Source: a bacterium (lineage in GTDB: Bacteria; Zhuqueibacterota; QNDG01; CAYUAG01). From it: a stretch of DNA of 64,000 nt. The notes under the pieces were generated by a model. That model was given only the letters and a program-made list of their open reading frames with translations. It ran no database searches and had not been told where the DNA came from. The stretch covers positions 11,981-75,980 of the forward strand of contig JAWODZ010000126.1 in the NCBI GenBank assembly GCA_046483025.1. Direction: 5' to 3'. Positions 31,934 to 58,741 of this stretch are shown here, piece by piece. A program made the position numbers and the translations under genes. The first letter of the stretch is position 1, and each line of letters opens with the position of its first letter.

Positions 31934-33847
31934 ATGAAATCAAAATATAAAAAAAGTCCCTATAACATATTCCAGTTTTTTAAAAATGTTCTGGATGCTA
32001 TGGCTGATCTGGTTTATATAGTTAACAAAGACAGAGAGATACAGTATATCAATCCTGCCATGAAAAAAGTATTCGGCTCCAAAGATGGTAAAAAATGCTA
32101 TGAATACCTTTCAGATTTATCGATGACCTGCCCCTGGTGCAGTCATGAAAATGTATTAGATGGTCATACCATTCGCAGGGAGTGGTATTGTCAAAAAAAA
32201 GATAGAATCTATGATGTAATTGAAACTCCTTTACATAATGAGAATGGTCAGGTTTTCAAGCTAAAAATTATGCGTGATATCACAGATCTAAAGAGATGGG
32301 AACAAAAACTTCAGAATGAGAGAGATTTATTGAAAAATATCATGGAAAACACCCATTCCATGATGGCATATCTGGATAAAGATTTTAATTTTATTCATGT
32401 CAATACAGCTTATGCAGAAGGTTCGGGTTATTCAGTTAAAGAGCTAATCGGCAGAAATCATTTTGATTTATTTCCCAATCAAGAGAATTATGCAATATTT
32501 AAAAAAGTCAGAGATACCGGCAACTCAATCGGGTTAAAAGATAAACCTTTTACATTTGCCCATCAACCGGAAAGAGGTGTTACGTACTGGAACTGGACAC
32601 TCAATCCCATAACAAATTCAGCTGGGGATACAGAGAATCTGGTTTTAACGCTGGAAGAAACCACCAAACGAAAAAGAATTGAAAATAAACTCAAGGAAAG
32701 TGAGGCCAGGTATAAACTTGCCCAAAAAGCTGCCCATATTGGTACCTGGGATTGGGATATCAAAACAGGCAAGCTTGTCTGGTCTGAAGAAGTTGAAACC
32801 TTGTTTGGGTTGCAAACCGGAGAGTTTAAAAATGATTATAAAGAATTTGTCAAACTAATCCATCCTGAGGACAGAGAGAAGGTTCAGTCAGCAATTGACA
32901 GATGCATTGAAGTAAAAGAAGATTATGATGTAGAACACCGTATAATCTGGCCGGATGGATCAATTCACTGGTTGAGAGAAATGGGGAATGTTATTTGTGA
33001 TGAAAAACAATTGGCAGTACGTATGCTGGGAATTGTTCAGGATATCACTGAACAAAAGGAAGCCCGAGAAATATTGGAAAACACCAGAGAGCAGTTGGAG
33101 CGAGGTGTAAAAAAGCGAACCGAAGAGCTGGAAAAACTCAATACAATATTACAGCAGGAAATTGCAGAACGTAAAAATTATCAAGAACAGCTCCACTCTT
33201 TAATGTCTCGTATGACAAAGATGGAAGAACAGGCGCGCAGAAGAATTGCCACCGGATTACATGATCGCATTGTTCAATCTTTGGCCCTGACCAAAATCAA
33301 ACTGGAGAAGATCATTGATAATAATGAGGATATAAAACTGAAAGACACCTTAGAAGAGATTCATCAGCTTGTGGATCAAAATATTAATGAGACCCGTTCC
33401 TTAACTTTTGAAATAAGTCCGCCTATACTGTATGAAATGGGTTTGGTATCGGCTATTGAATGGCTTGCAGATAAGATGAGCAAAAAGCACGATCTTGATA
33501 TTACTGTTAAAAACGATGGTGAATTCACATCCATGGATGATAATATACGCAATATTCTTTTTCAAACCGTTCAGGAATTACTGAATAACATTCAAGAACA
33601 TGCCGGAGCCAGCCAGGCAGAAATACAGATAGCAGAAGAAGAGGATAATATTGTAATTCAGATTAAAGATAACGGAGTTGGTTTTAAGGTATCGGAAGTA
33701 AAACCGGATATGTCCCGTTTGACCGGCTTTGGGCTTTTCAATATTAAAGAACGACTGAAATATGTAAAGGGTCAGTGCAGGATTACATCCGGGAAGAATC
33801 AAGGTACAACTGTTGTTATTAAAGCCCCCTGGAAAAAGAATAATTGA
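31934..33847 (+). CDS. PAS-domain sensor histidine kinase (HisKA_3 / NarL-type), copy 1
   Basis: Two or three PAS/PAC modules, coiled-coil linker, H-box HDRIVQSLA and HATPase_c (GFGL..). Paralogous to 55773-58067. Confidence 0.85.
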   Translation: MKSKYKKSPYNIFQFFKNVLDAMADLVYIVNKDREIQYINPAMKKVFGSKDGKKCYEYLSDLSMTCPWCSHENVLDGHTIRREWYCQKKDRIYDVIETPLHNENGQVFKLKIMRDITDLKRWEQKLQNERDLLKNIMENTHSMMAYLDKDFNFIHVNTAYAEGSGYSVKELIGRNHFDLFPNQENYAIFKKVRDTGNSIGLKDKPFTFAHQPERGVTYWNWTLNPITNSAGDTENLVLTLEETTKRKRIENKLKESEARYKLAQKAAHIGTWDWDIKTGKLVWSEEVETLFGLQTGEFKNDYKEFVKLIHPEDREKVQSAIDRCIEVKEDYDVEHRIIWPDGSIHWLREMGNVICDEKQLAVRMLGIVQDITEQKEAREILENTREQLERGVKKRTEELEKLNTILQQEIAERKNYQEQLHSLMSRMTKMEEQARRRIATGLHDRIVQSLALTKIKLEKIIDNNEDIKLKDTLEEIHQLVDQNINETRSLTFEISPPILYEMGLVSAIEWLADKMSKKHDLDITVKNDGEFTSMDDNIRNILFQTVQELLNNIQEHAGASQAEIQIAEEEDNIVIQIKDNGVGFKVSEVKPDMSRLTGFGLFNIKERLKYVKGQCRITSGKNQGTTVVIKAPWKKNN

Positions 33848-33859
33848 AAAGGATTTTTT

Positions 33860-34507
33860 ATGAAAACCAAAATCATACTGGCTGATGATCATCAGATAAT
33901 CAGGGATGGATTAAAATCTTTAATTGATAAGGAGACGGTTTTTGAGCTGTTGGCCGAGGCCAGTAATGGAAGAACCACTGTACAACTGGCTGAAGAGATG
34001 AAGCCGGATGTGGTGATTATGGATATCAGCATGCCGGGACTCAATGGTATGGAAGCAGCTCGTCAGATTTTACACACCAATCCTGATATTAAGATTATTG
34101 CTCTGTCAGTACATTCAGAAAAACAGTTTGTATCCGGAATGCTGCGGGCGGGTGCTTCTGCTTATTTGTTGAAAGACTGTGCCTTCCGGGAGCTTAAAGA
34201 GGCCATTAACTTGGTCAAGCAGAATCAAATTTATTTAAGTCCGAAAATTACCGGTTTAATTATTCATGATTACAAAGAAAAACTGATTAAAGAAGATCAG
34301 TCAGTATTCAATGTGTTAACCGGCAGAGAAAGGGAAGTGCTTCAGCTACTTGCAGAGGGGAAAACAACCAAACAGGTTGCCGGAGAGCTGTATATCAGTG
34401 TGAAAACAGTTGAAACTCACAGACAGAATATAATGAACAAATTGAGTGTATACAACCTTCCGGAACTGGTAAAATATGCAATCCGCCAGGGTATTGTAAG
34501 TCTTTAA
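33860..34507 (+). CDS. LuxR/NarL-family response regulator, copy 1
   Basis: REC domain (DDH...D in VIMDISMP...K) plus a C-terminal GerE/LuxR HTH. About 60% identical to 58091-58741. Confidence 0.9.
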   Translation: MKTKIILADDHQIIRDGLKSLIDKETVFELLAEASNGRTTVQLAEEMKPDVVIMDISMPGLNGMEAARQILHTNPDIKIIALSVHSEKQFVSGMLRAGASAYLLKDCAFRELKEAINLVKQNQIYLSPKITGLIIHDYKEKLIKEDQSVFNVLTGREREVLQLLAEGKTTKQVAGELYISVKTVETHRQNIMNKLSVYNLPELVKYAIRQGIVSL

Positions 34508-41067: not shown

Positions 41068-42234
41068 ATGGCAACAGATCCTATTTGCGGTATGAAAGTA
41101 GATGAAAAGCATGGATTAAAACTCACTCATGAAGGTAAAACCTACTATTTCTGCAGCCAGCATTGTATGGAAAAATTTATTGAAGAAAACCAGATAACCG
41201 GAGTTCAATGTACTGAATGCGGTCCGGAAGCAAAGCAGCCTTTTTACCGCAATAAGCTGTTTATTGTTGTTTCCGCATTAGCAGTACTGTCGTTATTGTC
41301 TTTTTGGATTCCTTTTCTACAAGCCTTCCGCAGAGAATTATTCGACTATTTCCGAATGATCTGGTGGGCAATTCTGCTGGGGCTGGTTCTTGGAGGTGTG
41401 ATCGATTATTTTATTCCCAGAGAGTATGTCTCCCATGTACTTGCCCGGCCCTCCAAACGAACCATTGTTTATTCCGTATTTGTGGGATTTCTCATGAGTG
41501 CCTGTTCCCACGGAATACTGGCCCTTGCCATTCAGCTTTATAAAAAGGGAGCTTCGGTGCCGGCAGTGGTGGCCTTTCTCTTGGCCAGTCCCTGGGCAAA
41601 TATGACTCTGACTATTATGCTTATTGGTCTTTTCGGACTCAAAGCTCTCTTCATTATCCTCTCTGCCATTGTAGTCGCAATTATTACCGGACTGATATTT
41701 CAGGTTCTGGAAAAGGCAAAGCGGGTGGAAACCAATCCTCATTCAATTCCTTTTGATGAAAAATTTTCCATTGTGCAGGACATTAAAAAAAGAGTAAGAC
41801 AAACCAAGCTAACCTCTTCTACAGTGGGAGAAGCTTTCAAAGGGATTTTTCAGGGGATAGTCAGCCTGAGCAATATGGTTCTGTGGTGGATTCTGATTGG
41901 TATGGGGCTGGCGAGTTTGGCCGGAGCCTATGTTCCCAGTTCTTTTTTTGTGAACTATATGGGCCCTACCATTGCGGGACTTCTGATTACTCTGGCTTTT
42001 GCTACTATTATTGAAATATGTTCCGAAGGCTCGGCTCCCATGGCTTTCGAGATTTTCAAACAAACTGCCGCCTTTGGCAACAGTTTTGTGTTTCTTATGG
42101 CTGGTGTGGTTACTGATTACACCGAGATCGGACTGTTATGGCATAATGTAGGGAAGAAAACCGCAATTATGCTTCCAGTGATCACAGTTCCTCAGGTGAT
42201 CTTACTCGGTATGCTGGCTAACTGGCTGTTTTAG
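41068..42234 (+). CDS. YHS/TRASH metal-binding domain fused to a DUF318-type permease
   Basis: N-terminal DPICGMKVDEK...YYFCSQHCMEKF (YHS), then a second Cys cluster CTECGPE, then about 8 TM helices with an EICSEGSAP motif. Confidence 0.7.
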   Translation: MATDPICGMKVDEKHGLKLTHEGKTYYFCSQHCMEKFIEENQITGVQCTECGPEAKQPFYRNKLFIVVSALAVLSLLSFWIPFLQAFRRELFDYFRMIWWAILLGLVLGGVIDYFIPREYVSHVLARPSKRTIVYSVFVGFLMSACSHGILALAIQLYKKGASVPAVVAFLLASPWANMTLTIMLIGLFGLKALFIILSAIVVAIITGLIFQVLEKAKRVETNPHSIPFDEKFSIVQDIKKRVRQTKLTSSTVGEAFKGIFQGIVSLSNMVLWWILIGMGLASLAGAYVPSSFFVNYMGPTIAGLLITLAFATIIEICSEGSAPMAFEIFKQTAAFGNSFVFLMAGVVTDYTEIGLLWHNVGKKTAIMLPVITVPQVILLGMLANWLF

Positions 42235-42913: not shown

Positions 42914-44014
42914 ATGTTTATTGATCCTGTATGTGGTATGGAAATAAAGGATGATACATATTCCCTGTTGAGGAAAGGCAGACTATATCACTTTTGTTCT
43001 GAAGGATGTATGAAGCGGTTTAAAAAGTCAAAAGGAAAGTACATTAAACGAAAAGATTACGATCTTATTATTATTGGAGGAGGACCTGCTGGATTGACAG
43101 CAGCTGTCTATGCATCCATGCAACATCTGGATACTTTTCTCATCACCAAAGATATCGGTGGTCAGGCCATTGATAGTACAAAAGTTAAGAATTATATGGG
43201 ATTTGATTTTATTACAGGACCGGAACTGACCTCTAAATTTCAAAACCAATTTCTTCACACCCATTTCATCGATCATCGAATTGGTGAGGTCATTGCTATT
43301 GAGAAAAAAGAGAATCGGTTCTTGCTCCGAACCAGAAATGGAGAAAACTACATTGCCCTTTCCATTATTCTGACGACCGGCATGCAGAGAAAAAAACTTG
43401 GAGTACCTGGTGAGGAGAGACTTCAGCGCCAAGGGATTTTTTATAATCGGGTTCAAGATACCGGCCTCTTGGAGGATATTCCAGTAGCTGTGATCGGTGG
43501 TGGCAATACAGGCGTTCAGGCAGCATTGGACTTATTCAAGGTGGCTTCTAAAGTAACTCTGATTACTTTCGAAGATTTAACTGCCGACGCTCATTTGAAA
43601 AAAGATATTCAACGGTCACCTATACAGGTGTTCACACAGTATGCGGTTGTATCTATCGAAGGAGAAGATCGAGTCAAAGGAGTTGTTATTAGGCCTCGGT
43701 CAGGAGGCAAGACGATTTCTATTGAAGTGGGAGCAGTTTTTGTTGGGATTGGTTTAATGCCCAATACTTCACTAGTATCCAAACTTCTAAAAAGAAACAA
43801 ATTAGGAGAGGTCGTCATCTCAAAGGATTGTTGGACTTCTGTTCCTGGAATTTTTGCAGCTGGCGATGTTACGGATGTTCATGATAAAAGAATCGTTATC
43901 GCTTCGGGAGAGGGTGCAAAGGCAGCACTTGCTGCCCATCGTTATTTGAAAGAATTGAAGAGGAGTAATTCAAATTTTAATAAAGGAAAATTGGAGGATG
44001 TTGATTATGAATAA
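42914..44014 (+). CDS. YHS domain fused to a thioredoxin-reductase-like FAD/NAD(P) flavoprotein lacking the CxxC redox disulfide
   Basis: N-terminal [23 protein letters not shown]. FAD motif [12 protein letters not shown]. The region aligning to Trx[13 protein letters not shown] reads [13 protein letters not shown], with no Cys. GGGNTG second dinucleotide fold. GD motif AAGDVTD. Confidence 0.75.
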   Translation: [366 protein letters not shown]

Positions 44015-46094
44015 ACCTCCGGATTCAAGAAATAAGGATTACCAACAACATGATGAGAAGAATATGGGGCGTAAGAGGCATAAAGGTCAAAAGATACATG
44101 AATCGCATGACCAGCAGGTACACTCTAATCATAACAGGCATCATGATCACCATGCCCACATGGTGGCTGATTTTCGCAAACGGTTCTGGATTTCCCTGGG
44201 AGCAACCATCCCTATTTTGATCTTGTCGCCCATGATTCAGGGTTTTTTGGGTTTTACACAGGCGCTTGATTTTCCGGGGGATGTGTATGTATTATGGACT
44301 CTTTCCTCGTTTGTTTACTTTTACGGCGGCTGGCCCTTTCTCAAAGGACTTTTTAATGAACTGCAAAAGAAACAGCCCGGAATGATGACCTTGATTGCGG
44401 TTGCTGTTACTACAGCTTATGGTTACAGCAGCATAGTTGTTTTCGGTTTGAGCGGAAAGGTTTTTTTCTGGGAATTAGCCACGCTTATCGATATCATGCT
44501 TTTGGGGCACTGGATTGAAATGAAGTCGGTCATGGGTGCTTCCCGCGCCCTGGAAGAGATTGCCAAACTCATGCCTTCCGACGCCCACAAAGTCATGGAG
44601 GACGGAAGTACCGAAGACGTTCCCATCGAAGAGCTCCAGCCCGGGGACAAGGTTCTGATAAAACCGGGAGAGAAAGTTCCGGTCGACGGAGAGGTGGTGG
44701 AAGGCGAGAGCTCGGTGAATGAGGCCATGTTGACCGGAGAATCCAGGCCGGTGGAAAAACAAACCGGGTCCAGAGTGATCGGTGGTTCCCTTAATGGTGA
44801 AGGCGCAATCACTACAGAAGTACAAAAAACAGGTAAGGATTCTTTTTTGTCCCAGATGATCGATCTGGTGGAACAGGCTCAGAAAAGCAAATCCAGAAGT
44901 CAGGATCTGGCCAATCGTGCTGCTTTATGGCTTACTATCATTGCCCTTACAGTGGGAGTGATCACTTTGGCAGTATGGCTGGTTATCCTGGAAAGGGACT
45001 TTTCTTTTGCACTGGAAAGGACGGTGACAGTTATGGTGATCACCTGTCCTCATGCCCTGGGACTTGCAGTACCCTTGGTTGTTGCTGTATCCACCGCACT
45101 TTCCGCCAAGAACGGCCTTCTTATACGGGATCGGGCTTCTTTTGAGAGAGGACGTAACATCCAGGCAATCATCTTTGACAAAACCGGTACCCTGACCAAG
45201 GGTGAATTCGGTGTAACTGATACAATTTCATTTTCTGATGGAATGGATGAGAAAAAATTACTTGAATATGCTGCTGCAGTGGAAGCACATTCAGAACATC
45301 CTATAGCAAAAGGAATTGCTGCTTCAGTTGAAAAACCACCTGGTGTCAAGGATTTCAAGGCTATACCCGGAAAAGGTGCCCAGGGTCTGGTTGAGGGAAA
45401 GCAGGTCAAAGTTGTAAGTCCTGGTTTTCTCAGAGAAAATAATATGTCCAGGCAAGATGAGAGGATCGACACATTCAATTCCCAGGCGAAAACCGTGGTT
45501 TTTGTGATAATTGATGGAGATCTCAAAGGGGCTGTTGCACTGGCGGATATTATCAGGGAGGAATCCAAAGAAGCTATCTCCAGACTCAAGGGAATGGGAA
45601 TAAAGTGCATGATGCTCACTGGTGACAACAATCTGGTCGCCAAGTGGGTTGCAGAGGAGATAGGTCTGGATGAATATTTTGCTGAAGTTTTGCCCCAGGA
45701 TAAAGCTGAAAAAGTTAAGGAGGTTCAGTCACGGGGGTTGATTGTGGCAATGACCGGAGACGGTGTCAATGATGCTCCAGCCCTTGCCCAGGCCGATGTG
45801 GGCATTGCTATCGGCGCCGGGACGGATGTTGCAGTCCAAACAGCTGATATTATACTGGTTCACAGCAATCCCCTGGATGCTGTGGCCATTTTGGATCTTT
45901 CCCGGGCTACTTACCGGAAGATGGTACAGAATCTGGGATGGGCAACCGGTTACAATGCTTTTGCCATCCCTTTAGCTGCCGGAATTCTATTCAAATACGG
46001 TATACTTTTGAGTCCTGCAGCAGGTGCTATTTTAATGTCATTGAGTACAGTAATTGTGGCCATCAATGCAAGATTTTTAAAGATTAAGCATTGA
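43998..46094 (+). CDS. copB: heavy-metal P1B-type ATPase, CopB-like (P1B-3, CPH motif, His-rich N-terminus)
   Basis: His-rich N-terminus HKGQKIHESHDQQVHSNHNRHHDHHAHM. TM6 CPH (ITCPHALGL), not CPC. DKTGTLT phosphorylation site, GDGVNDAP hinge. Confidence 0.85.
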   Translation: MLIMNKPPDSRNKDYQQHDEKNMGRKRHKGQKIHESHDQQVHSNHNRHHDHHAHMVADFRKRFWISLGATIPILILSPMIQGFLGFTQALDFPGDVYVLWTLSSFVYFYGGWPFLKGLFNELQKKQPGMMTLIAVAVTTAYGYSSIVVFGLSGKVFFWELATLIDIMLLGHWIEMKSVMGASRALEEIAKLMPSDAHKVMEDGSTEDVPIEELQPGDKVLIKPGEKVPVDGEVVEGESSVNEAMLTGESRPVEKQTGSRVIGGSLNGEGAITTEVQKTGKDSFLSQMIDLVEQAQKSKSRSQDLANRAALWLTIIALTVGVITLAVWLVILERDFSFALERTVTVMVITCPHALGLAVPLVVAVSTALSAKNGLLIRDRASFERGRNIQAIIFDKTGTLTKGEFGVTDTISFSDGMDEKKLLEYAAAVEAHSEHPIAKGIAASVEKPPGVKDFKAIPGKGAQGLVEGKQVKVVSPGFLRENNMSRQDERIDTFNSQAKTVVFVIIDGDLKGAVALADIIREESKEAISRLKGMGIKCMMLTGDNNLVAKWVAEEIGLDEYFAEVLPQDKAEKVKEVQSRGLIVAMTGDGVNDAPALAQADVGIAIGAGTDVAVQTADIILVHSNPLDAVAILDLSRATYRKMVQNLGWATGYNAFAIPLAAGILFKYGILLSPAAGAILMSLSTVIVAINARFLKIKH

Positions 46095-46143: not shown

Positions 46144-46860
46144 ATGGTAATGAACGTAAAATTGGTTATTTTGATTTTTGGAATCTTAATATTTAATCTA
46201 CAGTTTGCTCATACTCAACATATTGAAGAAGAGCATGAAGATCATTTTCTGCATCCATTTCTGGCTCATATGGCACTCCCGGACAGGCCCGGTGAAATTA
46301 GTGTCAGAGTGTCTCCGTTTCAAGAACGTTTGGGTGTGGAGACGATTCAAGACATTGGTGTCCATATTGAAGCAGGAATTTTACCAAGACTGGGCCTTCA
46401 TGTCAGGAATGATGCGATAAAAGAAGGTCCTTATACGGAAATGATGATCATGTACGCTCTTATCCAAAATACTTCACTGAGTAGAGGTATCAGTCTATTT
46501 GGTCAGTTAAGTATACCGACAGGCCCGATTGAGTCCAATCGGAACAGGACATTGTTCGGATTAGCAGCCAGGGAAACCTTGAAAAAATTCGTTATCATCA
46601 ATACAAATGTTCATATTGATGTCAAAGAGGAGATGGCAGATATTGGAAGTTCTTTCGTATTTCGGCTATCGGAAAAATTATATCCTATCTTTGAAGTACA
46701 TGGAGAAATAGGAGAAGAAGAAACACATGCATCCGGCTTGTTTGCTTTAAAATTCAGGGTTAAACAACATACTGGTCTGGGATTTGGGTTCCAATTTCCC
46801 TTCAGTGGACATAAAGAATATGATACCCAATTGCTGGCCACTTTCGATTTGACTTTTTAA
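46144..46860 (+). CDS. secreted beta-strand-rich protein with His-rich N-terminus, putative outer-membrane barrel
   Basis: Signal peptide. HIEEEHEDHFLHPFLAHM. Alternating hydrophobic pattern. C-terminal ...ATFDLTF. Confidence 0.5.
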   Translation: MVMNVKLVILIFGILIFNLQFAHTQHIEEEHEDHFLHPFLAHMALPDRPGEISVRVSPFQERLGVETIQDIGVHIEAGILPRLGLHVRNDAIKEGPYTEMMIMYALIQNTSLSRGISLFGQLSIPTGPIESNRNRTLFGLAARETLKKFVIINTNVHIDVKEEMADIGSSFVFRLSEKLYPIFEVHGEIGEEETHASGLFALKFRVKQHTGLGFGFQFPFSGHKEYDTQLLATFDLTF

Positions 46861-46880: not shown

Positions 46881-47084
46881 ATGTTCGGAGGAATGATTAT
46901 TATCTGGATTTTTATAGTTGTAGGAGTTATCTGGTTGATCAGATATTTGACTGAACAAAAAAATATGAAAAATAATGAAATGGAAAAAGAAACCAGCGCC
47001 CTGGATATATTGAAAATACAATATGCCAAGGGTGAGATCAACAGAGAAGAGTTCAAGAAACGTAAAAAAGATTTAGAAAATTAA
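46881..47084 (+). CDS. SHOCT-domain small membrane protein (copy 1)
   Basis: One TM, then ALDILKIQYAKGEINREEFKKRKKDL, the SHOCT signature. Confidence 0.7.
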   Translation: MFGGMIIIWIFIVVGVIWLIRYLTEQKNMKNNEMEKETSALDILKIQYAKGEINREEFKKRKKDLEN

Positions 47085-47088
47085 AAAA

Positions 47089-47340
47089 TTGAAAGGAGTG
47101 AAAATTATGCATGACTGGGGAATGATGAACTGGGGCTGGGGCGGTATGATTGTTCAATTGCTTTTCTGGATAGTTATTATTGTTGCTATTATCTGGGCAA
47201 TCAGGCATTTTACCGGACCTGGTCGAAGTGATGGATCTGCTTCCGGCAGTGAATCGGCTCTGGATGTACTGAAAAAACGTTACGCCAGCGGAGAGATCGA
47301 CAAACAAGAATTTGAAGAAAAGAAAAGGGATATTTTATGA
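47089..47340 (+). CDS. SHOCT-domain small membrane protein (copy 2)
   Basis: W/G-rich N-terminus, one TM, ALDVLKKRYASGEIDKQEFEEKKRDIL. An alternative start at 47107 is possible. Confidence 0.7.
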   Translation: MKGVKIMHDWGMMNWGWGGMIVQLLFWIVIIVAIIWAIRHFTGPGRSDGSASGSESALDVLKKRYASGEIDKQEFEEKKRDIL

Positions 47341-47732
47341 AAAAAACTTCATATGCATTCACCAAAACAGTAAATAGAGATTTTGACCAAACCATTCAGA
47401 AACTTACGGAAGAATTGAAAAAGGAGGGTTTTGGTATTCTGACTGAGATTGATGTTCAGGCTACTCTTAAGAAAAAACTGGATGTTGATTTCAGGCCTTA
47501 CAAGATTCTGGGTGCTTGTAATCCTTCCTTTGCCTATAAAGCCTTACAGGCGGAAGAACAGATCGCATTAATGCTGCCCTGTAATGTTATTGTGTATGTG
47601 AATGAAGAGAAAGAAACCGTAGTCGCAGCTATTGATCCGGAGGCCTCAATGACGGCAATTGATAATCCTGAATTACAGGGAATCAATAAAGAAGTTCAGA
47701 CCAAGCTCAGATCAGTGATTGAGCGATGTTGA
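47337..47732 (+). CDS. DUF302 domain protein
   Basis: 131 aa. GFGILTEIDVQATLKKKLDV...YKILGACNP is the DUF302 core. Confidence 0.7.
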   Translation: MKKTSYAFTKTVNRDFDQTIQKLTEELKKEGFGILTEIDVQATLKKKLDVDFRPYKILGACNPSFAYKALQAEEQIALMLPCNVIVYVNEEKETVVAAIDPEASMTAIDNPELQGINKEVQTKLRSVIERC

Positions 47733-47779: not shown

Positions 47780-48016
47780 ATGCACGGATGGGAGTTTATG
47801 CACTGGGGCTGGTTTGGTTTTATTGTGCAGATTATTTTCTGGGTAGCAATCATACTGCTTATAGTATGGGTGGCAAAGAAAGTCACAGAGTCAGGTTCCG
47901 GAGATCGATCTTCTTCTGCGGGAGAATCAGCCCTGGACATTTTGAAAAAAAGATATGCCAAGGGAGAGATTGACAAAGATGAGTATGAAAAAAAGAAAAA
48001 GGACTTGACTGCATGA
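47780..48016 (+). CDS. SHOCT-domain small membrane protein (copy 3)
   Basis: MHGWEFMHWGW.. TM, then ALDILKKRYAKGEIDKDEYEKKKKDL. Confidence 0.7.
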   Translation: MHGWEFMHWGWFGFIVQIIFWVAIILLIVWVAKKVTESGSGDRSSSAGESALDILKKRYAKGEIDKDEYEKKKKDLTA

Positions 48017-48274
48017 AAAATGTACTCATTGGGAGGTCAGATTATTATTAGTTGTAACTGTTGCAAAAGTTATTTTATGTCTTTTCAAGAAGCACAGTGA
48101 TCAGGCAATCTCCTGACATAGAGTGAGAATTCAGGTGGTTATTGTACAAAAAAAATTCTTGCTATGATAAGATGAGTACTTTTTTTATCAGTCACCAAAA
48201 AGGGGGTGGTAACTAAAGATGAATTTGAGTAATGTAACTAAACTGTACGTTAATATTTTAAAGGAGAGATAATT

Positions 48275-48781
48275 ATGAAAAAACAATTATTCATTTTATT
48301 GGTAAGTATGCTGGTACTGGCTTTGTTTACATTGCCGGTTTTTTCTCAGCAGCATCATAAAAAAGAGAAACAGGAAAAAATGGAAATGATGCAGCATGGA
48401 AAAATGATGGGAGAACAGAAAGGTATGATGGATATGCATCAGATGAATGTTATGATGGATTCTACCATGAAGAGATGCAAAATGACAAATGAGTACATGC
48501 AGAAAATGAAAGACAGTCAAATGATGGGTGGTAAAATGGGTATGAAATCCATGATGGGAATGAATCAGAACCTGGAGGGAATGGCACAACAGATGAAGAT
48601 GATGACTGAAAACATGGAAACAATGATGAACAGCGAAGAGATGATGTCTGATAAAGATTTTATGGAACATATGAATAAAATGCATGAAATGATGTCACAG
48701 ACTTCCAAAAACATGGACCAGATGGCAAAGATGATGCATAGTATGATGGAGCAGACTGACAAACAAAAAGAGATGGAATAG
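48275..48781 (+). CDS. secreted methionine-rich protein (about 30% Met; MxM/MxxM repeats), putative Cu(I)-binding periplasmic protein
   Basis: Signal peptide, then MEMMQHGKMMGEQKGMMDMHQMNVMMDSTM...MMSQTSKNMDQMAKMMHSMMEQ. SD ggagag upstream. Confidence 0.7.
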   Translation: MKKQLFILLVSMLVLALFTLPVFSQQHHKKEKQEKMEMMQHGKMMGEQKGMMDMHQMNVMMDSTMKRCKMTNEYMQKMKDSQMMGGKMGMKSMMGMNQNLEGMAQQMKMMTENMETMMNSEEMMSDKDFMEHMNKMHEMMSQTSKNMDQMAKMMHSMMEQTDKQKEME

Positions 48782-48983: not shown

Positions 48984-49616
48984 ATGAATATACATACCAG
49001 AAAAATAAAAAGACGCTACGGCCGTATTGCCGGCATATATGATGTGATGGAAAAACCCATGGAGTTCATATTTGCCACATGGCGTCGGGAATTGATGAAA
49101 GAAGTATCCGGAGAAGTGCTGGAAGTAGGAGTGGGTACAGGTAAAAATTTACAATACTATCCCCAGGGTATGAACGTGACAGCCATAGATTTCAGTTCCC
49201 GCATGATTGACAAAGCTAGGCAAAAAGTTCGAGAACTTGAACGGCACTTCGATTTACGGGTGATGGACGTTCAGGATATGAATTTCCCGGATAACACTTT
49301 CGATACCGTGGTGACTTCCTGTGTGTTCTGTTCGGTACCGGATCCGGTAAAAGGACTGAAAGAGATCCGCCGGGTGTGTAAATCAGGAGGAAAAGTAGTG
49401 ATGCTGGAGCATGTACGCAGTCAGAGACCAATATTAGGCCCTTTAATGGATATTTTGAATCCTGTACCAGTTTTAATGTATGGAGCCAATATCAATCGAA
49501 ATACCATTCAGAATCTGAGAATGGCCGGTTTTCGGAATATAGAAGTCAGGAATTTATGGTTGGATATTGTAAAACTGATCGTTGTTACACATGTAAAACA
49601 ATCAGTAGGTAAATAG
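48984..49616 (+). CDS. class I SAM-dependent methyltransferase (Methyltransf_11/UbiE-like)
   Basis: Motif I VLEVGVGTGKNL, motif post-I IDFS..M. Confidence 0.75.
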   Translation: MNIHTRKIKRRYGRIAGIYDVMEKPMEFIFATWRRELMKEVSGEVLEVGVGTGKNLQYYPQGMNVTAIDFSSRMIDKARQKVRELERHFDLRVMDVQDMNFPDNTFDTVVTSCVFCSVPDPVKGLKEIRRVCKSGGKVVMLEHVRSQRPILGPLMDILNPVPVLMYGANINRNTIQNLRMAGFRNIEVRNLWLDIVKLIVVTHVKQSVGK

Positions 49617-49676: not shown

Positions 49677-51926
49677 ATGAAGAAAATTTTAGGGATTCTA
49701 CTGGTTTTGTTATTATTTAATACAGTTTTTGCTCATAATGAATTGACTCCCACAGTCAATGGGGATTCTATTATTTATGAGCTTACCATTCATTATAAAA
49801 CCGTCAATTTTACCGGAAAAGAAACCCAGGCCATAGCGGTGAACAATTCCATTCCGGCTCCCGTGCTCCGGTTTCAGGAAGGTAAAATTGCTGTAATACA
49901 AGTGACAAACGAAATGTCGGAAGAGGCGTCCATTCACTGGCATGGACTGATTCTGCCTAATTTTCAGGATGGAGTACCCTATCTTACTACACCTCCCATA
50001 CGTGCCGGTAAAACCTTTACTTACAGTTTTCCGCTCAAACAGTCAGGCACTTACTGGTATCACTCCCATACCGGGCTGCAGGAACAAAAAGGATTATACG
50101 GCGGGATTATAATTGAACCCAGAGAAAGTACAATTCAGTACGATCGGGATCTGGTCCTGGTGCTTTCGGACTGGACGGATCAGGATCCCCGCAAGGTTCT
50201 TAAAAACCTGAAACGTCATAATGAGTGGTACGGAGTAAAGATCGGAAATGCTCCCTCACTCTGGGATGCAGTAAAAAATAACACCTTGATACCCCAGTTT
50301 AAATTATGGGCTGATCAGATGCCGGGCATGCATATATCTGATATTTATTATGATGCTTTTTTGATCAACGGTAAGAAGGAACAGGTATACGAAGATTTTT
50401 TACCTGGTGAAGAGGTCAGGTTACAGGTAATAAATGCTGCTGCCTCCAGTTATTTCTGGCTCACCTGGGCCGGAGGTGATTTGGAGATTATCTCAGCAGA
50501 TGGCCTGAATGTACAGCCGGTTAAAGCTGAGAAAGTTTTGATCGGGATAGCGGAAACTTATGATTTTATCATTACAATTGCGGAAGGTAAAAGCCTTGAA
50601 TTCAGGGCCACTGCTCAGGATGTTACCGGAAGTTCATCTGTTTTTATGGGGAGAGGAAAAAGAACAGAAGCTCCCGGGATCCCTTTTCCCAATTATCAAA
50701 AGCTGGGAAGAAAGATGGCAGAGCTGCACGGGGGAGGAGACAGTATGGAGCTTAAAGGTGATGAAAAAGGTGATTTAAAAAAGCATGATAATGTCATGAA
50801 AATGTCCAGTGATCATTCTACAGATAAAATGCAGAAAAATACGGACTCAGCCATGCAGCATACCATGCAGGAAGAACATGGTATGAAAGTAACCGATCCC
50901 ATGATTATGTGGAACGCGGGGTATTCTAATACAATATTAAAATCAGTGGAACCGACAAAATTTTCCCAGGATTCCCCGGTAAGACATCTGGTTTTAAATC
51001 TTACAGGTGATATGTGGCGATATAACTGGAATATCAACGGAAAACCTCTCTCAAAAGCGGATAAGATCAGGATAAACAAAGGTGAAGTAGTCCAGATTAC
51101 TCTGAACAATACTACTATGATGCATCATCCCATGCATTTACACGGTCATTTTTTCAGAGTGCTGAATGGTAATGGAGATCATTCTCCCCTGAAACATACA
51201 GTGGACATACCCCCAATGAGCAGAACAACCATTGAATTTGCTGCCTCAGAAGATAAAGACTGGTTCTTTCACTGTCATATTCTGTATCATATGTCAGCGG
51301 GTATGGCCCGGATTTTCAGTTATAATCACAGCATTAGAGATAAAAGACTTGATAAATATCCACTCAAAAATTTCTTAAAACATGACAGTGAATGGTTTTT
51401 CTGGGGTGATATCAGCGGATTAAGTCATAAGGGGGTACTTGAACTGGTTTTGTCCAACACCTATAATCAAATTAATCTAAAAGCAGAATATGGGTGGCAA
51501 CAACAGATATATGAAGCCAAATTAGACTATGAACGATTTATCCAAAATTATTTCAGAATATACACCGGTCTGAAAGCTGAAACCGAAGAAGCTGATAACT
51601 GGGATGATCCGCATACATCCGGCAGAGTCGGTATTCGGTATTTACTTTTGTATATTTTAGATACGGATATAAGCATTGATCATCAACTGAGACCGGAAAT
51701 AGCCTTGGAAGCCCATCTGCCTCTTACCAAACGCCTGATATCGGCAGGGCATCTGGAATGGAAAAATGATTTTGGCTGGATCAATGAATTACCTGAAGGT
51801 GTGAACCAGGAAGGGGAGCTGGTCTGGAATGTGAATCTTGAATATATTTTAGGAAAGAATTTTTTGCTTTCAGCCGGATATGATAATCGTTTTGAGTGGG
51901 GAGGGGGACTTAAAATATTATTTTAA
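49677..51926 (+). CDS. multicopper oxidase (CopA/CueO-like) with Met-rich insert and an about 210-aa C-terminal beta-rich extension ending in Phe
   Basis: Copper motifs HWHGL, WYHSH, HPMHLHGH and HCHILYHMSAGM. Met-rich segment MKMSSDHSTDKMQKNTDSAMQHTMQEEHGMKVTDPMIMW. Extension from about residue 540 ends ...GGGLKILF. Confidence 0.8.
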   Translation: MKKILGILLVLLLFNTVFAHNELTPTVNGDSIIYELTIHYKTVNFTGKETQAIAVNNSIPAPVLRFQEGKIAVIQVTNEMSEEASIHWHGLILPNFQDGVPYLTTPPIRAGKTFTYSFPLKQSGTYWYHSHTGLQEQKGLYGGIIIEPRESTIQYDRDLVLVLSDWTDQDPRKVLKNLKRHNEWYGVKIGNAPSLWDAVKNNTLIPQFKLWADQMPGMHISDIYYDAFLINGKKEQVYEDFLPGEEVRLQVINAAASSYFWLTWAGGDLEIISADGLNVQPVKAEKVLIGIAETYDFIITIAEGKSLEFRATAQDVTGSSSVFMGRGKRTEAPGIPFPNYQKLGRKMAELHGGGDSMELKGDEKGDLKKHDNVMKMSSDHSTDKMQKNTDSAMQHTMQEEHGMKVTDPMIMWNAGYSNTILKSVEPTKFSQDSPVRHLVLNLTGDMWRYNWNINGKPLSKADKIRINKGEVVQITLNNTTMMHHPMHLHGHFFRVLNGNGDHSPLKHTVDIPPMSRTTIEFAASEDKDWFFHCHILYHMSAGMARIFSYNHSIRDKRLDKYPLKNFLKHDSEWFFWGDISGLSHKGVLELVLSNTYNQINLKAEYGWQQQIYEAKLDYERFIQNYFRIYTGLKAETEEADNWDDPHTSGRVGIRYLLLYILDTDISIDHQLRPEIALEAHLPLTKRLISAGHLEWKNDFGWINELPEGVNQEGELVWNVNLEYILGKNFLLSAGYDNRFEWGGGLKILF

Positions 51927-55772: not shown

Positions 55773-58067
55773 TTGAAATTAAACAAAAAAAAATTATATA
55801 CTCCGGAATTGATTGCTGCCATAATTGAAACTATCCGTGGGGCTCTCGTTATTTTAGATGAGGATCTCCGGGTTGTTCATGCAAATCAGTCTTTTTACAG
55901 CACGTTTAAAGTAAATCCTGAGGAAACGGAATCCTGTCTTCTATATGAAATAGGAAACAACCAATGGAATATTCCTAAGTTACGTGAAATCCTGGAGAAG
56001 ATACTTCCCCCAAAAAAAACTATGATGGATTTTCTGGTGGAACATGATTTTCCTCATATTGGCTACCGTATTATGAAGCTGAATGCCATACAGATTACCA
56101 GCAAAGAGAACAGGATGCCGCTGATTCTTTTGGTAATTGAAGATATAACGGACAGAAAAAATAAAGAAAGAGAACTTTATAGTTCCAGAAATCTGCTGCA
56201 ATCAATCATAGATCATGCCGGCTCTATGCTGGCCTATCTGGATAGGGATTTTAATTATGTTTATGTGAATAGACTTTATGCTGAGAACCTGGGATATACT
56301 ATAAAAGAACTGGTAGGACAAAACCACTTTAATCTGTTTAAAAAAACAGAAAATTATAAGGTGTTTAATAAAGTAAGGGAAACAGGAGAAACTGTTTACC
56401 TGCAGGATAGGATAAATCCCTTTATTCGGAATGTAAAAGAAATAAAATATTATAACTTTATTCTGTCTGCGGTTAAAAACAGTAAGGGTAAGGTGAAAGG
56501 TCTGATTTTAACTCTTATGGATACTACCCGGAGAAAAGAATATGAAGATAGCCTTGATGCCAGTGAGAAACGATATAAACTGGCCCAAAAGATGGGTGGG
56601 ATCGGCACCTGGGAGTGGAACATTGAAACCAATAAACTCACCTGGTCGAAGGAGGTTTCCCGGCTCTATGGATTAAAAAAAATTCCCTCAAACTTGACCT
56701 ATAAGGGTTTTCTCAGAATGGTTCATCATGAAGACAGAAGAGAAGTGGAACTGGCTGTGAACCGGTGTATTGAGGAGGAACAAGAATATAATGTGGATCA
56801 CCGTATCCGGTTACCTGATGGTTCCATTCACTGGCTGAGAGAAAAAGGGAATGTGGTGCGGAATAAAAACAAAATGGCTGAGAGAATGCTGGGCGTAGTA
56901 ATGGATATTACCAGCGAAAAGAAAGCAGCTTTGGAGAAAGCCAGGCTGGCTGCTATTGTAAACACCTCTACCGATGCAATTTTGCTCTATAGTTCCCGGG
57001 GTATTCTCATTCACTGGAATTCCGGGGCTCGTCTGGTGTTTGGATATTCGGAAAAGGAGATGGTGGGTAAATCTATTTTCAGATTGGTGCCGGAGAGAAA
57101 GATGGATGAGTTGAATAAAATATTAAAACAGACCCGAGAAGGCAAATCCATCCGATATCTGGAAACCATCCGGAAAAGAAAAGATGGTAAAGAAATTCAT
57201 ATTGCCCTTACTGTAACTCCCATTCGGAATGAGAAGGGAAAAGTCAGTGCCATCTCTACTGTTGAGCGGGATATTTCACATCGCAAGGAGGTGGAAGCAA
57301 AATCCAGAAAACAGCACCAGGAACTGGAGATACGGGTAAAGCAACGAACTGAGGATCTTGCCCGGAGTCGGGACAAGTTGCAGCAGGAAGTGGAAGAACG
57401 TCGTCATTATCAGAAAGAGCTTCAGTCATTGGCTTCTGGTATTTCTCTGGTTGAAGAAAGAGAACGTCGTAAAATAGCTACTTATTTACATGATCAGGTA
57501 GTTCAAAATCTGGTATATTCAAATTTAAAACTGGGTCAACTGGGTCAGATGAAGGTAAATACATCTCAGAAAAATATTTTGAAGGAAGTCTCAAAATATA
57601 TCCGGGAAACTATTGGTGATCTGCGAAACCTGACTTTTGAAATCAGTCCTCCCATTCTCTATGAACTGGGATTTATAAAAGCAGTGGAATGGCTGGCTCA
57701 GCAGTATCAGGAACAATGGAAAATATCAGTTGAAGTAAAATCTACCTCTCTTTCTGTTCCTCTTGATGAAACAAAGCGGGTAGTTTTATTTCAAAGTGTA
57801 CGGGAATGTCTGAACAACATATGTAAACATGCTCAGTCTGAGAAAAATAAAATTTTTATCCGAGAACAAAAAAATAACCTCGAAGTTGAAATAGTGGATG
57901 ATGGTGAGGGTTTTAATCCGGAAGAAGTAAAATTATCCAGTGCTTCAGCACATGGATTCGGCCTGATCAATATACGGGAAAGACTGGAATATTTGAGTGG
58001 TTCCCTGGAAATTCAATCCCAGCCGGGACAAGGAACCCGAATACGGATGCGGATTCCAATTAATTAA
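55773..58067 (+). CDS. PAS-domain sensor histidine kinase (HisKA_3 / NarL-type), copy 2
   Basis: Paralogous to 31934-33847 (for example MLAYLDRDFNYVYVNRLYAE... versus MMAYLDKDFNFIHVNTAYAE...) with one extra PAS module. H-box HDQVVQNLV. TTG start per the track. Confidence 0.85.
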   Translation: MKLNKKKLYTPELIAAIIETIRGALVILDEDLRVVHANQSFYSTFKVNPEETESCLLYEIGNNQWNIPKLREILEKILPPKKTMMDFLVEHDFPHIGYRIMKLNAIQITSKENRMPLILLVIEDITDRKNKERELYSSRNLLQSIIDHAGSMLAYLDRDFNYVYVNRLYAENLGYTIKELVGQNHFNLFKKTENYKVFNKVRETGETVYLQDRINPFIRNVKEIKYYNFILSAVKNSKGKVKGLILTLMDTTRRKEYEDSLDASEKRYKLAQKMGGIGTWEWNIETNKLTWSKEVSRLYGLKKIPSNLTYKGFLRMVHHEDRREVELAVNRCIEEEQEYNVDHRIRLPDGSIHWLREKGNVVRNKNKMAERMLGVVMDITSEKKAALEKARLAAIVNTSTDAILLYSSRGILIHWNSGARLVFGYSEKEMVGKSIFRLVPERKMDELNKILKQTREGKSIRYLETIRKRKDGKEIHIALTVTPIRNEKGKVSAISTVERDISHRKEVEAKSRKQHQELEIRVKQRTEDLARSRDKLQQEVEERRHYQKELQSLASGISLVEERERRKIATYLHDQVVQNLVYSNLKLGQLGQMKVNTSQKNILKEVSKYIRETIGDLRNLTFEISPPILYELGFIKAVEWLAQQYQEQWKISVEVKSTSLSVPLDETKRVVLFQSVRECLNNICKHAQSEKNKIFIREQKNNLEVEIVDDGEGFNPEEVKLSSASAHGFGLINIRERLEYLSGSLEIQSQPGQGTRIRMRIPIN

Positions 58068-58090
58068 AATTAAAAAGAAAGGAAAGACTG

Positions 58091-58741
58091 ATGTCAATCA
58101 AGGTACTACTGGCAGAAGATCATCATATTATGCGTCAGGGCCTTCGCAGTTTATTAGAGGATCAATCCAATATAACTGTTGTGGGGGAAGCAAAAGACGG
58201 CCGGGAGACCATACAATTAGCCGGCAAGTTTAAACCTGATGTAATTGTTATGGATATAAGTATGCCTAACCTTAATGGAATGGAAGCTACTTACCAGATA
58301 CTGGAAGAACTCCCTGACGTAAAAATTATTGGATTATCGGTCCACTCTGATGAACAGTTCATTTCCGGGATGTTTCGGGCTGGAGCCTGCGGTTATCTGC
58401 TCAAAGATTGTGTAATAGATGAATTGATGAACGCTATTGATACAGTAGTACGAGATCAAATTTATATCAGCCCCTCTATTTCCAAACAGGTTATCAAGGA
58501 TTACCGACAATATCTTAAAAAAGATAAGGATTCCGTTTTTGAATTATTAACCGAGCGGGAACGAGAAGTGCTGCAGCTTATAGCAGAAGGCAAGTCCACC
58601 AAAGAGATTGCCGGTACTCTTTATGTCAGTGAAAAGACTGTAGCCACTCATCGACAGAATATGATGAACAAACTTGATATTTACAGTGTTCCAGAATTGG
58701 TGAAATATGCTATTAAAGAAGGGCTGATTTCCCTGAAATGA
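58091..58741 (+). CDS. LuxR/NarL-family response regulator, copy 2
   Basis: REC plus GerE HTH. About 60% identical to 33860-34507. Confidence 0.9.
   Translation: MSIKVLLAEDHHIMRQGLRSLLEDQSNITVVGEAKDGRETIQLAGKFKPDVIVMDISMPNLNGMEATYQILEELPDVKIIGLSVHSDEQFISGMFRAGACGYLLKDCVIDELMNAIDTVVRDQIYISPSISKQVIKDYRQYLKKDKDSVFELLTEREREVLQLIAEGKSTKEIAGTLYVSEKTVATHRQNMMNKLDIYSVPELVKYAIKEGLISLK

Follow-up and report, generated by a model that had tools for sequence, protein, structure and literature searches.

The stretch of DNA analysed here, called the window throughout, comprises 64,000 nucleotides of a bacterial contig (GenBank assembly GCA_046483025.1, contig JAWODZ010000126.1) and carries, inside a copper island, the gene for a small exported protein in which 45 of 168 residues (26.8%) are methionine. 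Based on its genomic context and its composition, this Met-rich protein probably represents a new family of periplasmic buffer or relay proteins for Cu(I) or Ag(I). The gene is real and under purifying selection, and in five divergent lineages (25-81% identity) it belongs to copper-export clusters. The protein is predicted to consist of a flexible tail and an antiparallel three-helix coiled coil, the core of which would be built almost wholly from thioethers; this core is its most unusual feature.

Gene, composition and conservation

The 168-residue open reading frame (ORF) and the translation given in an earlier sequence-only reading of the window proved exact, and the estimate of about 30% Met with few His or Cys fits the mature protein: after the predicted cleavage between VFS and QQ, 43 of 144 residues are Met (29.9%), and the whole protein contains 7 His, 1 Cys and no Trp. 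Aliphatic residues are nearly missing from the mature part (1 Leu, 0 Ile, 1 Val, 1 Phe and 2 Ala). Among the 68 ORFs of at least 100 amino acids in the window, the median Met content is 2.8% and the runner-up to the Met-rich protein reaches 8.4%. A chance origin of the Met content is excluded, with binomial probabilities of 8e-31 (p=0.028) and 2e-12 (p=0.084) for reaching 45 Met or more. MxM, MxxM and MMxxM arrays had been described, of which only part was recovered: the i+3 spacing is enriched, as are i+6/7 and i+10, but MxM is rarer than expected (5 observed versus 12.4 expected). This spacing is a helical pattern, and 87 of 5000 shuffles matched its power in the 95-110 degree band.

A word-indexed search of 5.8 billion proteins returned three full-length homologs with 54-60% identity, and an exhaustive hidden Markov model search of 1.84 billion cluster representatives yielded 18 family proteins at E≤1e-3, 15 of which are 150-190 amino acids long, the other 3 being shorter fragments. 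In all sources these proteins are named only "hypothetical protein", and neither Pfam nor NCBIfam has a model for them. The family is found in only two of the GTDB species-representative genomes, both uncultured metagenome-assembled genomes (MAGs), and a tblastn search of 72,556 plasmids with the Met-rich protein gave no match; further loci come from a metagenome scan, which was run with a 9-sequence alignment. Four motifs go beyond composition in the family alignment, namely MDS[TC], GMA[EQ]QMK, MMNxKEM and MHExMxxTxxN, and the protein of the window has all four, together with a length within 150-190 amino acids, an N-terminal export signal and three heptad-patterned helices. Sequence comparison places it as the founding member of a rare, unnamed new family.

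Against the three homologs, the ratio of nonsynonymous to synonymous substitution rates (dN/dS) is 0.07-0.22; synonymous sites are saturated, and it is the third codon position that differs most often. Close homologs share 30 of the 42 Met columns without change, compared with 49 of the 112 other columns. These values bear on the possibility that the ORF is spurious and arose by low-complexity drift without being expressed, a case that the sequence-only reading had itself raised as fatal to its proposal. The extreme bias towards a single residue would fit such an origin, and so would a long open frame of 129 amino acids on the opposite strand (48296-48685). However, the gene has a Shine-Dalgarno sequence and encodes a signal peptide, its length, motifs and synteny are kept down to 25% identity, and no DNA tandem repeat was found beneath the Met-rich composition. 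The antisense frame is interrupted in homologs (66 amino acids in one of them), and each of its 35 His codons (CAT) is a sense Met codon read exactly in reverse complement, so that its earlier description as a His-rich mirror image was correct. Drift is therefore refuted by conservation and may be set aside as extremely improbable.

Export and predicted fold

Secretion by a Sec signal, as claimed before, can be read from the sequence (Table 1); the signal has neither a twin-arginine nor a lipobox. Every full-length family member carries an N-terminal export signal, which contains a lipobox in the branch of the family proteins P0018 and P0021. In the tail that follows, the predicted local distance difference test (pLDDT) score is 50-63 when AlphaFold2 is run with an alignment and falls below 50 at mature residues 16-27 when it is run on the single sequence. 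The tail also varies in length, with a 14-residue indel relative to P0001-3, while the mature N-terminus QQHH is invariant within the close clade. A Cu(II) site of the amino-terminal copper- and nickel-binding type at this N-terminus (QQH...) was given little weight, as the residues are confined to the closest clade and the N-terminal Gln may cyclise.

The bundle itself is predicted with confidence. With an alignment of 20 sequences, AlphaFold2 reached a mean pLDDT of 83 and a predicted template modelling score (pTM) of 0.62, and the three long helices are mostly above a pLDDT of 90; the mature protein run without an alignment gave the same helix boundaries at a pLDDT of 72. When heptads are assigned to the three helices, Met is found at 19 of the 28 core positions (10 of 13 "a", 9 of 15 "d"), at about one third of the e/g positions and at 1 of 28 b/f positions, and it is this distribution from which the nearly all-thioether core is predicted. 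The protein is thus not the "string of Met clusters" for which it had been taken, since the family also conserves motifs of other residues, and Met sits at the core heptad positions of a three-helix bundle that is predicted with confidence.

Across the family, 14 of the Met columns of the window protein stay Met in at least 70% of the members, 15 swap with hydrophobic residues and 13 with polar residues; the latter suggests that these 13 are surface positions. At the 28 a/d columns, the members found in a copper context have 19-23 Met and 2-4 aliphatic residues, whereas P0017, which has no copper context, has 10 of each. Because the core columns are Met-rich and aliphatic-poor in the copper-context members, unlike in P0017, selection favours methionine itself rather than mere hydrophobicity, and does so in connection with the copper context. 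Over the 38.3-55.5 kb region of the window, the Met-rich protein is 51-81% identical to its counterparts in the loci L005, L021 and L022 and the neighbouring proteins are 72-92% identical, which indicates that it evolves faster than its operon partners, with its Met columns retained. The 81%- and 51%-identical variants both lie on contigs with the sample prefix Ga0180433.

A profile search of the PDB matched only designed coiled coils and chemoreceptor bundles, matches that report the heptad pattern and not ancestry. An all-helical small periplasmic protein that diverges faster than its neighbours, as is often seen with adaptor surfaces, could also be a protein-binding adaptor or stress chaperone, in which Met-lined surfaces bind partners or unfolded proteins in the manner of the SRP54 M-domain or of Spy, CpxP and ZraP, and metal is secondary. 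Met-rich surfaces mediate promiscuous peptide binding, and small SHOCT membrane proteins are constant neighbours of the gene. This explanation is nevertheless unlikely: sequence and profile similarity to Spy, CpxP, ZraP or any PDB protein beyond the designed bundles is absent, the core Met are kept and Leu and Ile excluded only in copper-context members, and unrelated metal-binding proteins fill the same genomic niche elsewhere. Candidate docking partners of such an adaptor would be the copper ATPase, the SHOCT proteins and the multicopper oxidase (MCO) of the island.

Association with copper-export genes in relatives

The link to copper proposed from the window is strongly supported by its relatives, where the gene context is conserved down to 25% identity. 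The gene order of the window is kept in loci from other samples (L002-L011, L021, L022 and L028). In L026 (65% identity, guanine plus cytosine (GC) content 44%), an ATPase with a heavy-metal-associated (HMA) domain and a SHOCT gene precede the Met-rich gene, which is followed by a methyltransferase gene. The locus L014 of P0016 (34% identity, locus GC 53%) has genes for OEP, CusB(HMBD), a resistance-nodulation-division (RND) pump, YHS, SHOCT and a glutaredoxin-like protein on one side of the Met-rich gene and for a YHS/HMA copper ATPase and a cupredoxin on the other, with no adjoining methyltransferase. In P0010 (about 30% identity, GC 57%), the Met-rich gene is followed by a methyltransferase of the same kind and two HMA proteins. 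The most distant case is the lipoprotein P0021 (25% identity, GC 47%), where genes for RND, OEP, CusB, PII, a copper ATPase, the Met-rich protein, the methyltransferase and an MCO follow each other, with junctions of 13, 10 and -4 nt. The ATPase and the methyltransferase of this locus are 59% and 66% identical to those of the window; its MCO is of a different, 530-residue type with 22% identity.

It had been proposed that the protein feeds an adjacent MCO. The two genes are not adjacent, as the conserved methyltransferase gene stands between them. An MCO gene belongs to the loci of the window clade and of P0021, but none was found within 8 kb in P0016/L014, which has CusCBA, a copper ATPase and a cupredoxin. 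No MCO occurs within 10 kb downstream in L001 either, the upstream side of which is cut by the contig end. Feeding the MCO is for these reasons one option and not a demonstrated role.

The methyltransferase next to the Met-rich gene

The most constant neighbour of the Met-rich gene encodes a class-I S-adenosylmethionine (SAM) methyltransferase, which scores below the cutoff of every NCBIfam equivalog; PmtA-type phospholipid N-methyltransferases and UbiE are the nearest. It comes after the Met-rich gene in the clade of the window and in L026, L013 and L031/32, with 34-82% identity. In the MAG GCA_964554015.1 (L001:928-1550), the methyltransferase is split into two ORFs of 73 and 134 amino acids and is followed by a Na+/H+ exchanger gene; the copy could be decaying or rearranged, or the assembly could be wrong here.

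Homologs of the enzyme also occur in annotated plasmids (39-54% identical), where 4 of 6 distinct contexts are copper islands, and those of Cytobacillus, Deinococcus and Thermococcus plasmids (39-51% identical) stand beside other copper binders or exported Met-rich proteins; outside the window, the methyltransferase gene lies at L035:5977-6597, L038:5992-6609, L036:5941-6627 and L031:9473-10096. In Cytobacillus, the methyltransferase homolog is 51% identical to that of the window and is flanked by a gene of the YdhK/CopL family (DUF1541) directly upstream and, on the other side, by an adjoining gene for a Csp-type "four-helix bundle copper-binding protein" (DUF326), with a plastocyanin-family gene near. 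The Deinococcus homolog is accompanied by DUF305, a copper ATPase, a cupredoxin, Csp and an exported protein with a Met-dense segment, the Thermococcus homolog adjoins a heavy-metal ATPase, a TRASH protein and another exported Met-rich protein, and the Jeotgalibaca homolog lies about 5 kb from SHOCT, DUF302 and DUF305 genes. The exported "hypothetical" proteins of the Deinococcus sp. D7000 plasmid (L038:4945-5382) and the Thermococcus peptonophilus plasmid (L036:5481-5828, minus strand) have the Met-dense segments ...GGDMMGGDMNAMMKQCMQMMQDMQMMQ... and ...GGYMHGGMMGYGMHGMMDDEMYEQMEDYM..., respectively. Neither was accepted as a homolog of the family: the Deinococcus protein shares only a 25-residue helix-1-like match (hhalign probability 16%) and the Thermococcus protein gave no match (1%). 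Unrelated sulfur-rich copper-binding proteins thus fill an equivalent genomic niche, which lends independent support to a copper-binding role of the Met-rich protein. That one methyltransferase turns up in the copper islands of different phyla suggests that copper resistance includes a step not yet recognised.

The close pairing raises the possibility that the two genes form a functional unit of their own, for example for a modification before export or for a methylated or thioether metabolite, with copper being involved only indirectly. The pair persists in L001, and in L031 the methyltransferase is by far the better conserved partner (66% versus 25% identical to the proteins of the window). 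This is, however, very unlikely, as the enzyme is found in the copper islands of Cytobacillus, Deinococcus and Thermococcus without any family member, P0016 lacks an adjoining methyltransferase, and the enzyme has no export signal while the Met-rich protein is located outside the cytoplasm; furthermore, lipids and quinones are the substrates of PmtA and UbiE, the characterised enzymes nearest to it.

The copper island of the window

In the window, the Met-rich gene lies inside a long run of plus-strand genes (Table 1). Three features assign the copper ATPase to the CopB or P1B-3 type: a CPH transmembrane motif at residue 350, a His-rich N-terminus (11 of the first 65 residues) and the lack of an HMA domain. 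The ATPase is syntenic in L005, L021, L022, L028 and L031. The start of its gene overlaps the end of the upstream gene for a YHS-flavoprotein fusion, which is itself unusual and hints at a metal-linked redox activity, possibly that of a cupric or disulfide reductase; an rseC gene stands between this and the permease fused to YHS. The C-terminus of the 238-residue protein encoded downstream of the ATPase is typical of outer-membrane barrels; this protein has no Pfam or NCBIfam match, and the syntenic loci L005, L021 and L022 lack it. Two of the three SHOCT proteins have N-termini like MHDWGMMNWGWGG and MHGWEFMHWGWFG, and SHOCT and DUF302 genes are kept upstream of the Met-rich gene in L002-L005, L010, L011, L014, L021, L022, L026 and L028. 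The SHOCT literature was confined to a silver-induced SHOCT protein in Haloferax (PMC10694973).

Besides its match to CopB/PcoB, the C-terminal extension of the MCO weakly matches an outer-membrane beta-barrel family, which suggests that the enzyme is a CopA-CopB-like fusion that would tether the oxidase to the outer membrane; its length of about 750 residues is kept in L005, L006, L021 and L022. The extension and the 238-residue protein were compared as possible paralogs with a negative result. The MCO gene is followed by genes for a metallo-beta-lactamase (MBL)-fold protein and a cupredoxin.

The island starts with oxidative-stress genes, which encode desulfoferrodoxin, a DJ-1/PfpI protein and a CDGSH protein. 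Such neighbours would suit a sacrificial antioxidant, the exposed and core Met of which scavenge reactive oxygen or chlorine species during copper stress and become Met sulfoxide, thereby shielding other periplasmic proteins; Met in periplasmic copper proteins such as CusF is oxidised under copper stress and repaired by MsrPQ (PMC9302797). However, no methionine sulfoxide reductase was found in the loci examined, the family-wide association is with copper exporters and not with oxidative-stress genes, and a scavenger does not need Met at core heptad positions. From the outer-membrane-barrel-like domains of the island, desulfoferrodoxin and pyruvate:ferredoxin oxidoreductase, we infer that the host is probably a diderm anaerobe, and related loci carry SMTZ-type sample names. 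Taken with these points, an antioxidant role is quite unlikely.

Upstream of the Met-rich gene, an AGGAG-like block at the Shine-Dalgarno position is conserved in the syntenic loci. The region before the gene also forms a conserved leader, in which the upstream ORF (MNLSNVTKLYVNILKER) stops 2 nt before the main ATG. A GGGGGTG block and a nearby start codon are conserved in six syntenic loci with peptides of 3-17 amino acids, and in L002, L004 and L028 the leader ORF is in frame with the main ORF and runs into it; the leader may be a regulatory upstream ORF or provide an alternative start. A recurring operator was sought by means of the conserved upstream block; its motif is unique in the window, and no regulon could be inferred. 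A consensus scan for promoters and terminators around the gene did not exceed the counts obtained from shuffled sequences, and Rfam had no match anywhere in the window. The stress and copper island is flanked by near-duplicate pairs of a PAS-HisKA_3 histidine kinase and a LuxR-type response regulator (31934-34507 and 55773-58741).

Table 1. Features in and around the copper island, with positions counted in the window; residue numbers refer to the Met-rich protein unless stated otherwise.
Feature	Position	Strand	Description	Basis
YHS fused to ArsP/SO_0444-like Cu/Zn efflux permease	41068-42234	+		
YHS fused to thioredoxin-reductase/AhpF-like flavoprotein	42914-44014	+		
CopB-type (P1B-3-like) copper P-type ATPase	43998-46094	+		TIGR01511, 641 bits; motif check
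Unannotated 238-residue protein	46144-46860	+	Signal peptide; His/Glu-rich mature N-terminus (HTQHIEEEHEDHFLHPFLAH); C-terminal ...TFDLTF	
Three small SHOCT-domain membrane proteins	46881-47084, 47089-47340, 47780-48016	+	Paralogous, directly upstream of the Met-rich gene	Pfam
DUF302 protein	47337-47732	+		Pfam
Conserved leader	48200-48272	+	Shine-Dalgarno-like AAGGGGGTGG (48200-48209), then ATG at 48219; 17-codon upstream ORF	Alignment of six loci
Shine-Dalgarno sequence AGGAGA	48262-48267	+	7 nt before the ATG of the Met-rich gene	Sequence
Met-rich gene, complete	48275-48781	+	168 amino acids; ATG start, stop codon 48779-48781	ORF listing, dN/dS, 18-representative family
Sec-type signal peptide, residues 1-24	48275-48346	+	MKKQ n-region, 19-residue hydrophobic core, cleavage VFS/QQ	Sequence
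Met/His/Lys/Gln-rich N-terminal tail, residues 25-53	48347-48433	+	Low confidence, probably flexible	
Predicted helix 1, residues 54-79	48434-48511	+	Motif MDS[TC]...C	AlphaFold2 (2 runs), heptads, alignment
Predicted helix 2, residues 87-118	48533-48628	+	Most conserved motif, GMA(E/Q)QMK	AlphaFold2 (2 runs), heptads, alignment
Predicted helix 3, residues 127-167	48653-48775	+	Motif MHExMxxTxxN	AlphaFold2 (2 runs), heptads, alignment
Class-I SAM methyltransferase	48984-49616	+	Most constant neighbour of the Met-rich gene	Pfam Methyltransf_11/25
CopA/CueO-like MCO, 749 amino acids	49677-51926	+		Pfam Cu-oxidase domains; TIGR01480, 400 bits, below cutoff
Met-rich insert of the MCO, MCO residues 352-411	50730-50909	+	9 Met	
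C-terminal extension of the MCO, 199 amino acids	51327-51926	+	Ends ...GGGLKILF	Weak CopB/PcoB match PF05275, E=0.0038

Proposed function

In the proposed model, the Met-rich protein would be exported by the Sec pathway, lose its signal peptide and reside as a soluble protein in the periplasm, where it would present a ligand-rich flexible tail and a bundle of about 9 a/d layers, most of them all-Met and some with flanking e/g Met. The thioethers could bind several soft monovalent ions, Cu(I) or Ag(I), in the space between the helices or along the Met-lined flanks, and a high capacity combined with fast exchange would allow the protein to buffer the metal as well as to relay it. Cu(I) expelled by the co-encoded CopB-type ATPase would be taken up and thereby kept from periplasmic targets, to be passed on to the sink that the respective genome provides, which may be the outer-membrane-tethered MCO in the window and the CusCBA pump or a cupredoxin in relatives. 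We infer metal binding, its stoichiometry, the partners and the state of the bundle, which could be pre-formed or folded by metal. The model agrees with the view of the Met-rich domain of CueO as a recruiter of Cu(I) (PMC11494321) and with the role of PcoE and SilE as sponges (PMC5008109, PMC7558416).

Several points weigh against this model. In E. coli, anaerobic copper resistance was attributed to catalysis by CueO and not to the copper-binding capacity of its Met-rich domain (PMC12510620), so passive sequestration by thioethers alone may be of little effect; for the same reason, "buffer and relay" is favoured over "static store". The all-Met core could merely be an unusual hydrophobic core, and AlphaFold2 is prone to predict bundles for any amphipathic helices, with the layers of Met side chains resting on a prediction at the level of helices. 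On the contigs available for the two Met-poorer branches of the family, namely P0017 (9.5% Met) and the P0007-like loci L023, L024 and L027 (about 15%), copper genes are missing. Nor does a buffer or relay account for the conserved pairing with a cytoplasmic methyltransferase. Finally, no copper-responsive regulator or operator was identified beside the Met-rich gene, and none of the CsoR, CueR or CopY type was found in the region examined.

A more far-reaching version of the buffer and relay model, which is rather doubtful, assumes a pre-formed bundle in which stacked Met3 layers hold a column of several Cu(I) ions, as a thioether counterpart of Csp and a soluble, multiplied Ctr1 filter, within a hitherto unrecognised conserved module of a CopB-type ATPase, an exported sulfur-rich binder and a dedicated methyltransferase. 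If this were true, the module of ATPase, binder and methyltransferase would have a range that includes sediment bacteria, Bacillota, Deinococcota and Thermococcus, with binders that are not homologous.

Comparison with known copper- and silver-binding systems

To our knowledge, Met-based handling of Cu(I) in the periplasm has been known only from single sites (CusF, CopC, CopK), from disordered His/Met sponges (PcoE/SilE) and from the Met-rich loops of CueO, the role of which is still debated. A stand-alone protein that folds around an all-Met core would be a clean natural model for the capacity, affinity and exchange rate of thioether-only binding of Cu(I) and Ag(I), and it could show whether such binding functions in settings such as anoxic sulfidic sediments, in which thiolate chemistry or oxidation that depends on oxygen cannot be relied on. 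Protein designers would take an interest as well, given that de novo coiled coils are the structures it matches most closely. The likeness to the Met-rich loops of CusF, PcoC and CopB, which the sequence-only reading had drawn, stands as an analogy but not as homology, since Pfam and NCBIfam gave no match and the PDB profile search found heptad likeness only; scans of the full and mature protein against Pfam and NCBIfam returned only sub-threshold, coiled-coil-like noise (Dynactin_p22, 20 bits; SecM, 14 bits). Membership in the CusF family was likewise rejected, as the protein has no match to it in Pfam or NCBIfam, is predicted to be all-alpha and not an oligonucleotide/oligosaccharide-binding (OB) fold, and lacks the Trp of a Met2-His(-Trp) site; CopM/DUF305 gave no match even at E≤5.

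PcoE and SilE are periplasmic Met/His sponges of Enterobacteria, which have been proposed as the first-line buffer for Cu(I) and Ag(I) (PMC5008109, PMC7558416). Like the protein of the window, with its predicted periplasmic export and copper-gene context, they are small (about 140-170 amino acids), Sec-exported, soluble and encoded in copper or silver resistance clusters, and they place soft-metal ligands at the helical spacing i+3/i+4, being helical when metal is bound. However, they have 10 conserved His and 10-15 Met in HxxM/MxxH motifs (PMC5008109), whereas the protein of the window has 45 Met and 7 His; its relatives have 2-13 His, none of which is invariant across the family alignment. 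PcoE and SilE are furthermore disordered without metal, whereas the prediction here is a regular coiled coil of three helices with Met in the core positions. The NCBIfam model for SilE and PcoE, NF047789, scores genuine PcoE with 144 and SilE with 280 bits, and the protein of the window has no NCBIfam match at E≤0.1; comparison of the family profile by hhalign gave probabilities of 1.1% for PcoE and 0.5% for SilE, and both membership and homology were rejected.

The Csp proteins, among which Csp1 is periplasmic and Tat-exported (PMC7558416), resemble the predicted structure in that Csp1 and Csp3 are helical bundles, the inward positions of which are filled by one sulfur amino acid, thereby giving many potential Cu(I) sites per monomer. 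They differ in using Cys thiolates instead of Met thioethers (19 Cys in the Cytobacillus Csp, 1 Cys here) and in having four helices and, in Csp1, a Tat signal, compared with three predicted helices and a Sec signal lacking the twin-arginine. Binding by the Met-rich protein would be expected to be much weaker and faster-exchanging. A relationship was rejected (no DUF326 match, an hhalign probability of 0.06% against a genuine Csp and no Csp chain in the PDB profile search).

The Met-rich domain of CueO is reported to bind Cu(I) transiently and to recruit it by means of many methionines (PMC11494321); it is Met-dense, partly helical and located in the periplasm beside cuprous oxidation, and the Met-rich protein could do the same job in trans. 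The two differ in that the latter stands alone with its own signal peptide and predicted fold, and the neighbouring MCO already has a Met-rich insert. CopL (YdhK/DUF1541) is a lipoprotein found with CopB/CopX P1B-3 ATPases in Staphylococcus and Listeria and was suggested to bind copper outside the cytoplasm (PMC10233261). It is comparable as an extracytoplasmic accessory encoded with a His-rich CPH-type copper ATPase and sometimes an MCO, but it is unrelated in sequence and fold and is a lipoprotein of Gram-positive bacteria, whereas the Met-rich protein is soluble and belongs to an island with likely outer-membrane barrel domains. Membership was rejected, as the protein of the window has no lipobox and no DUF1541 match (the Cytobacillus YdhK scores 165 bits).

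The geometry of the predicted bundle also invites a comparison with Ctr1, as a purely structural analogy, since three helices with Met at i/i+4 could stack sites of three thioethers selective for Cu(I) or Ag(I), an arrangement to be expected if the a/d layers of Met bind metal. The Met-triad rings of Ctr1 and the Met clusters of CusA, CusB and CusF belong to membrane-channel or OB-fold proteins with one to few sites, whereas the Met-rich protein is predicted to be a soluble bundle with about 9 possible layers. On balance, the protein seems to work like a known kind, the periplasmic soft-metal buffer or chaperone, and at the same time to belong to an undescribed family with a distinctive architecture.

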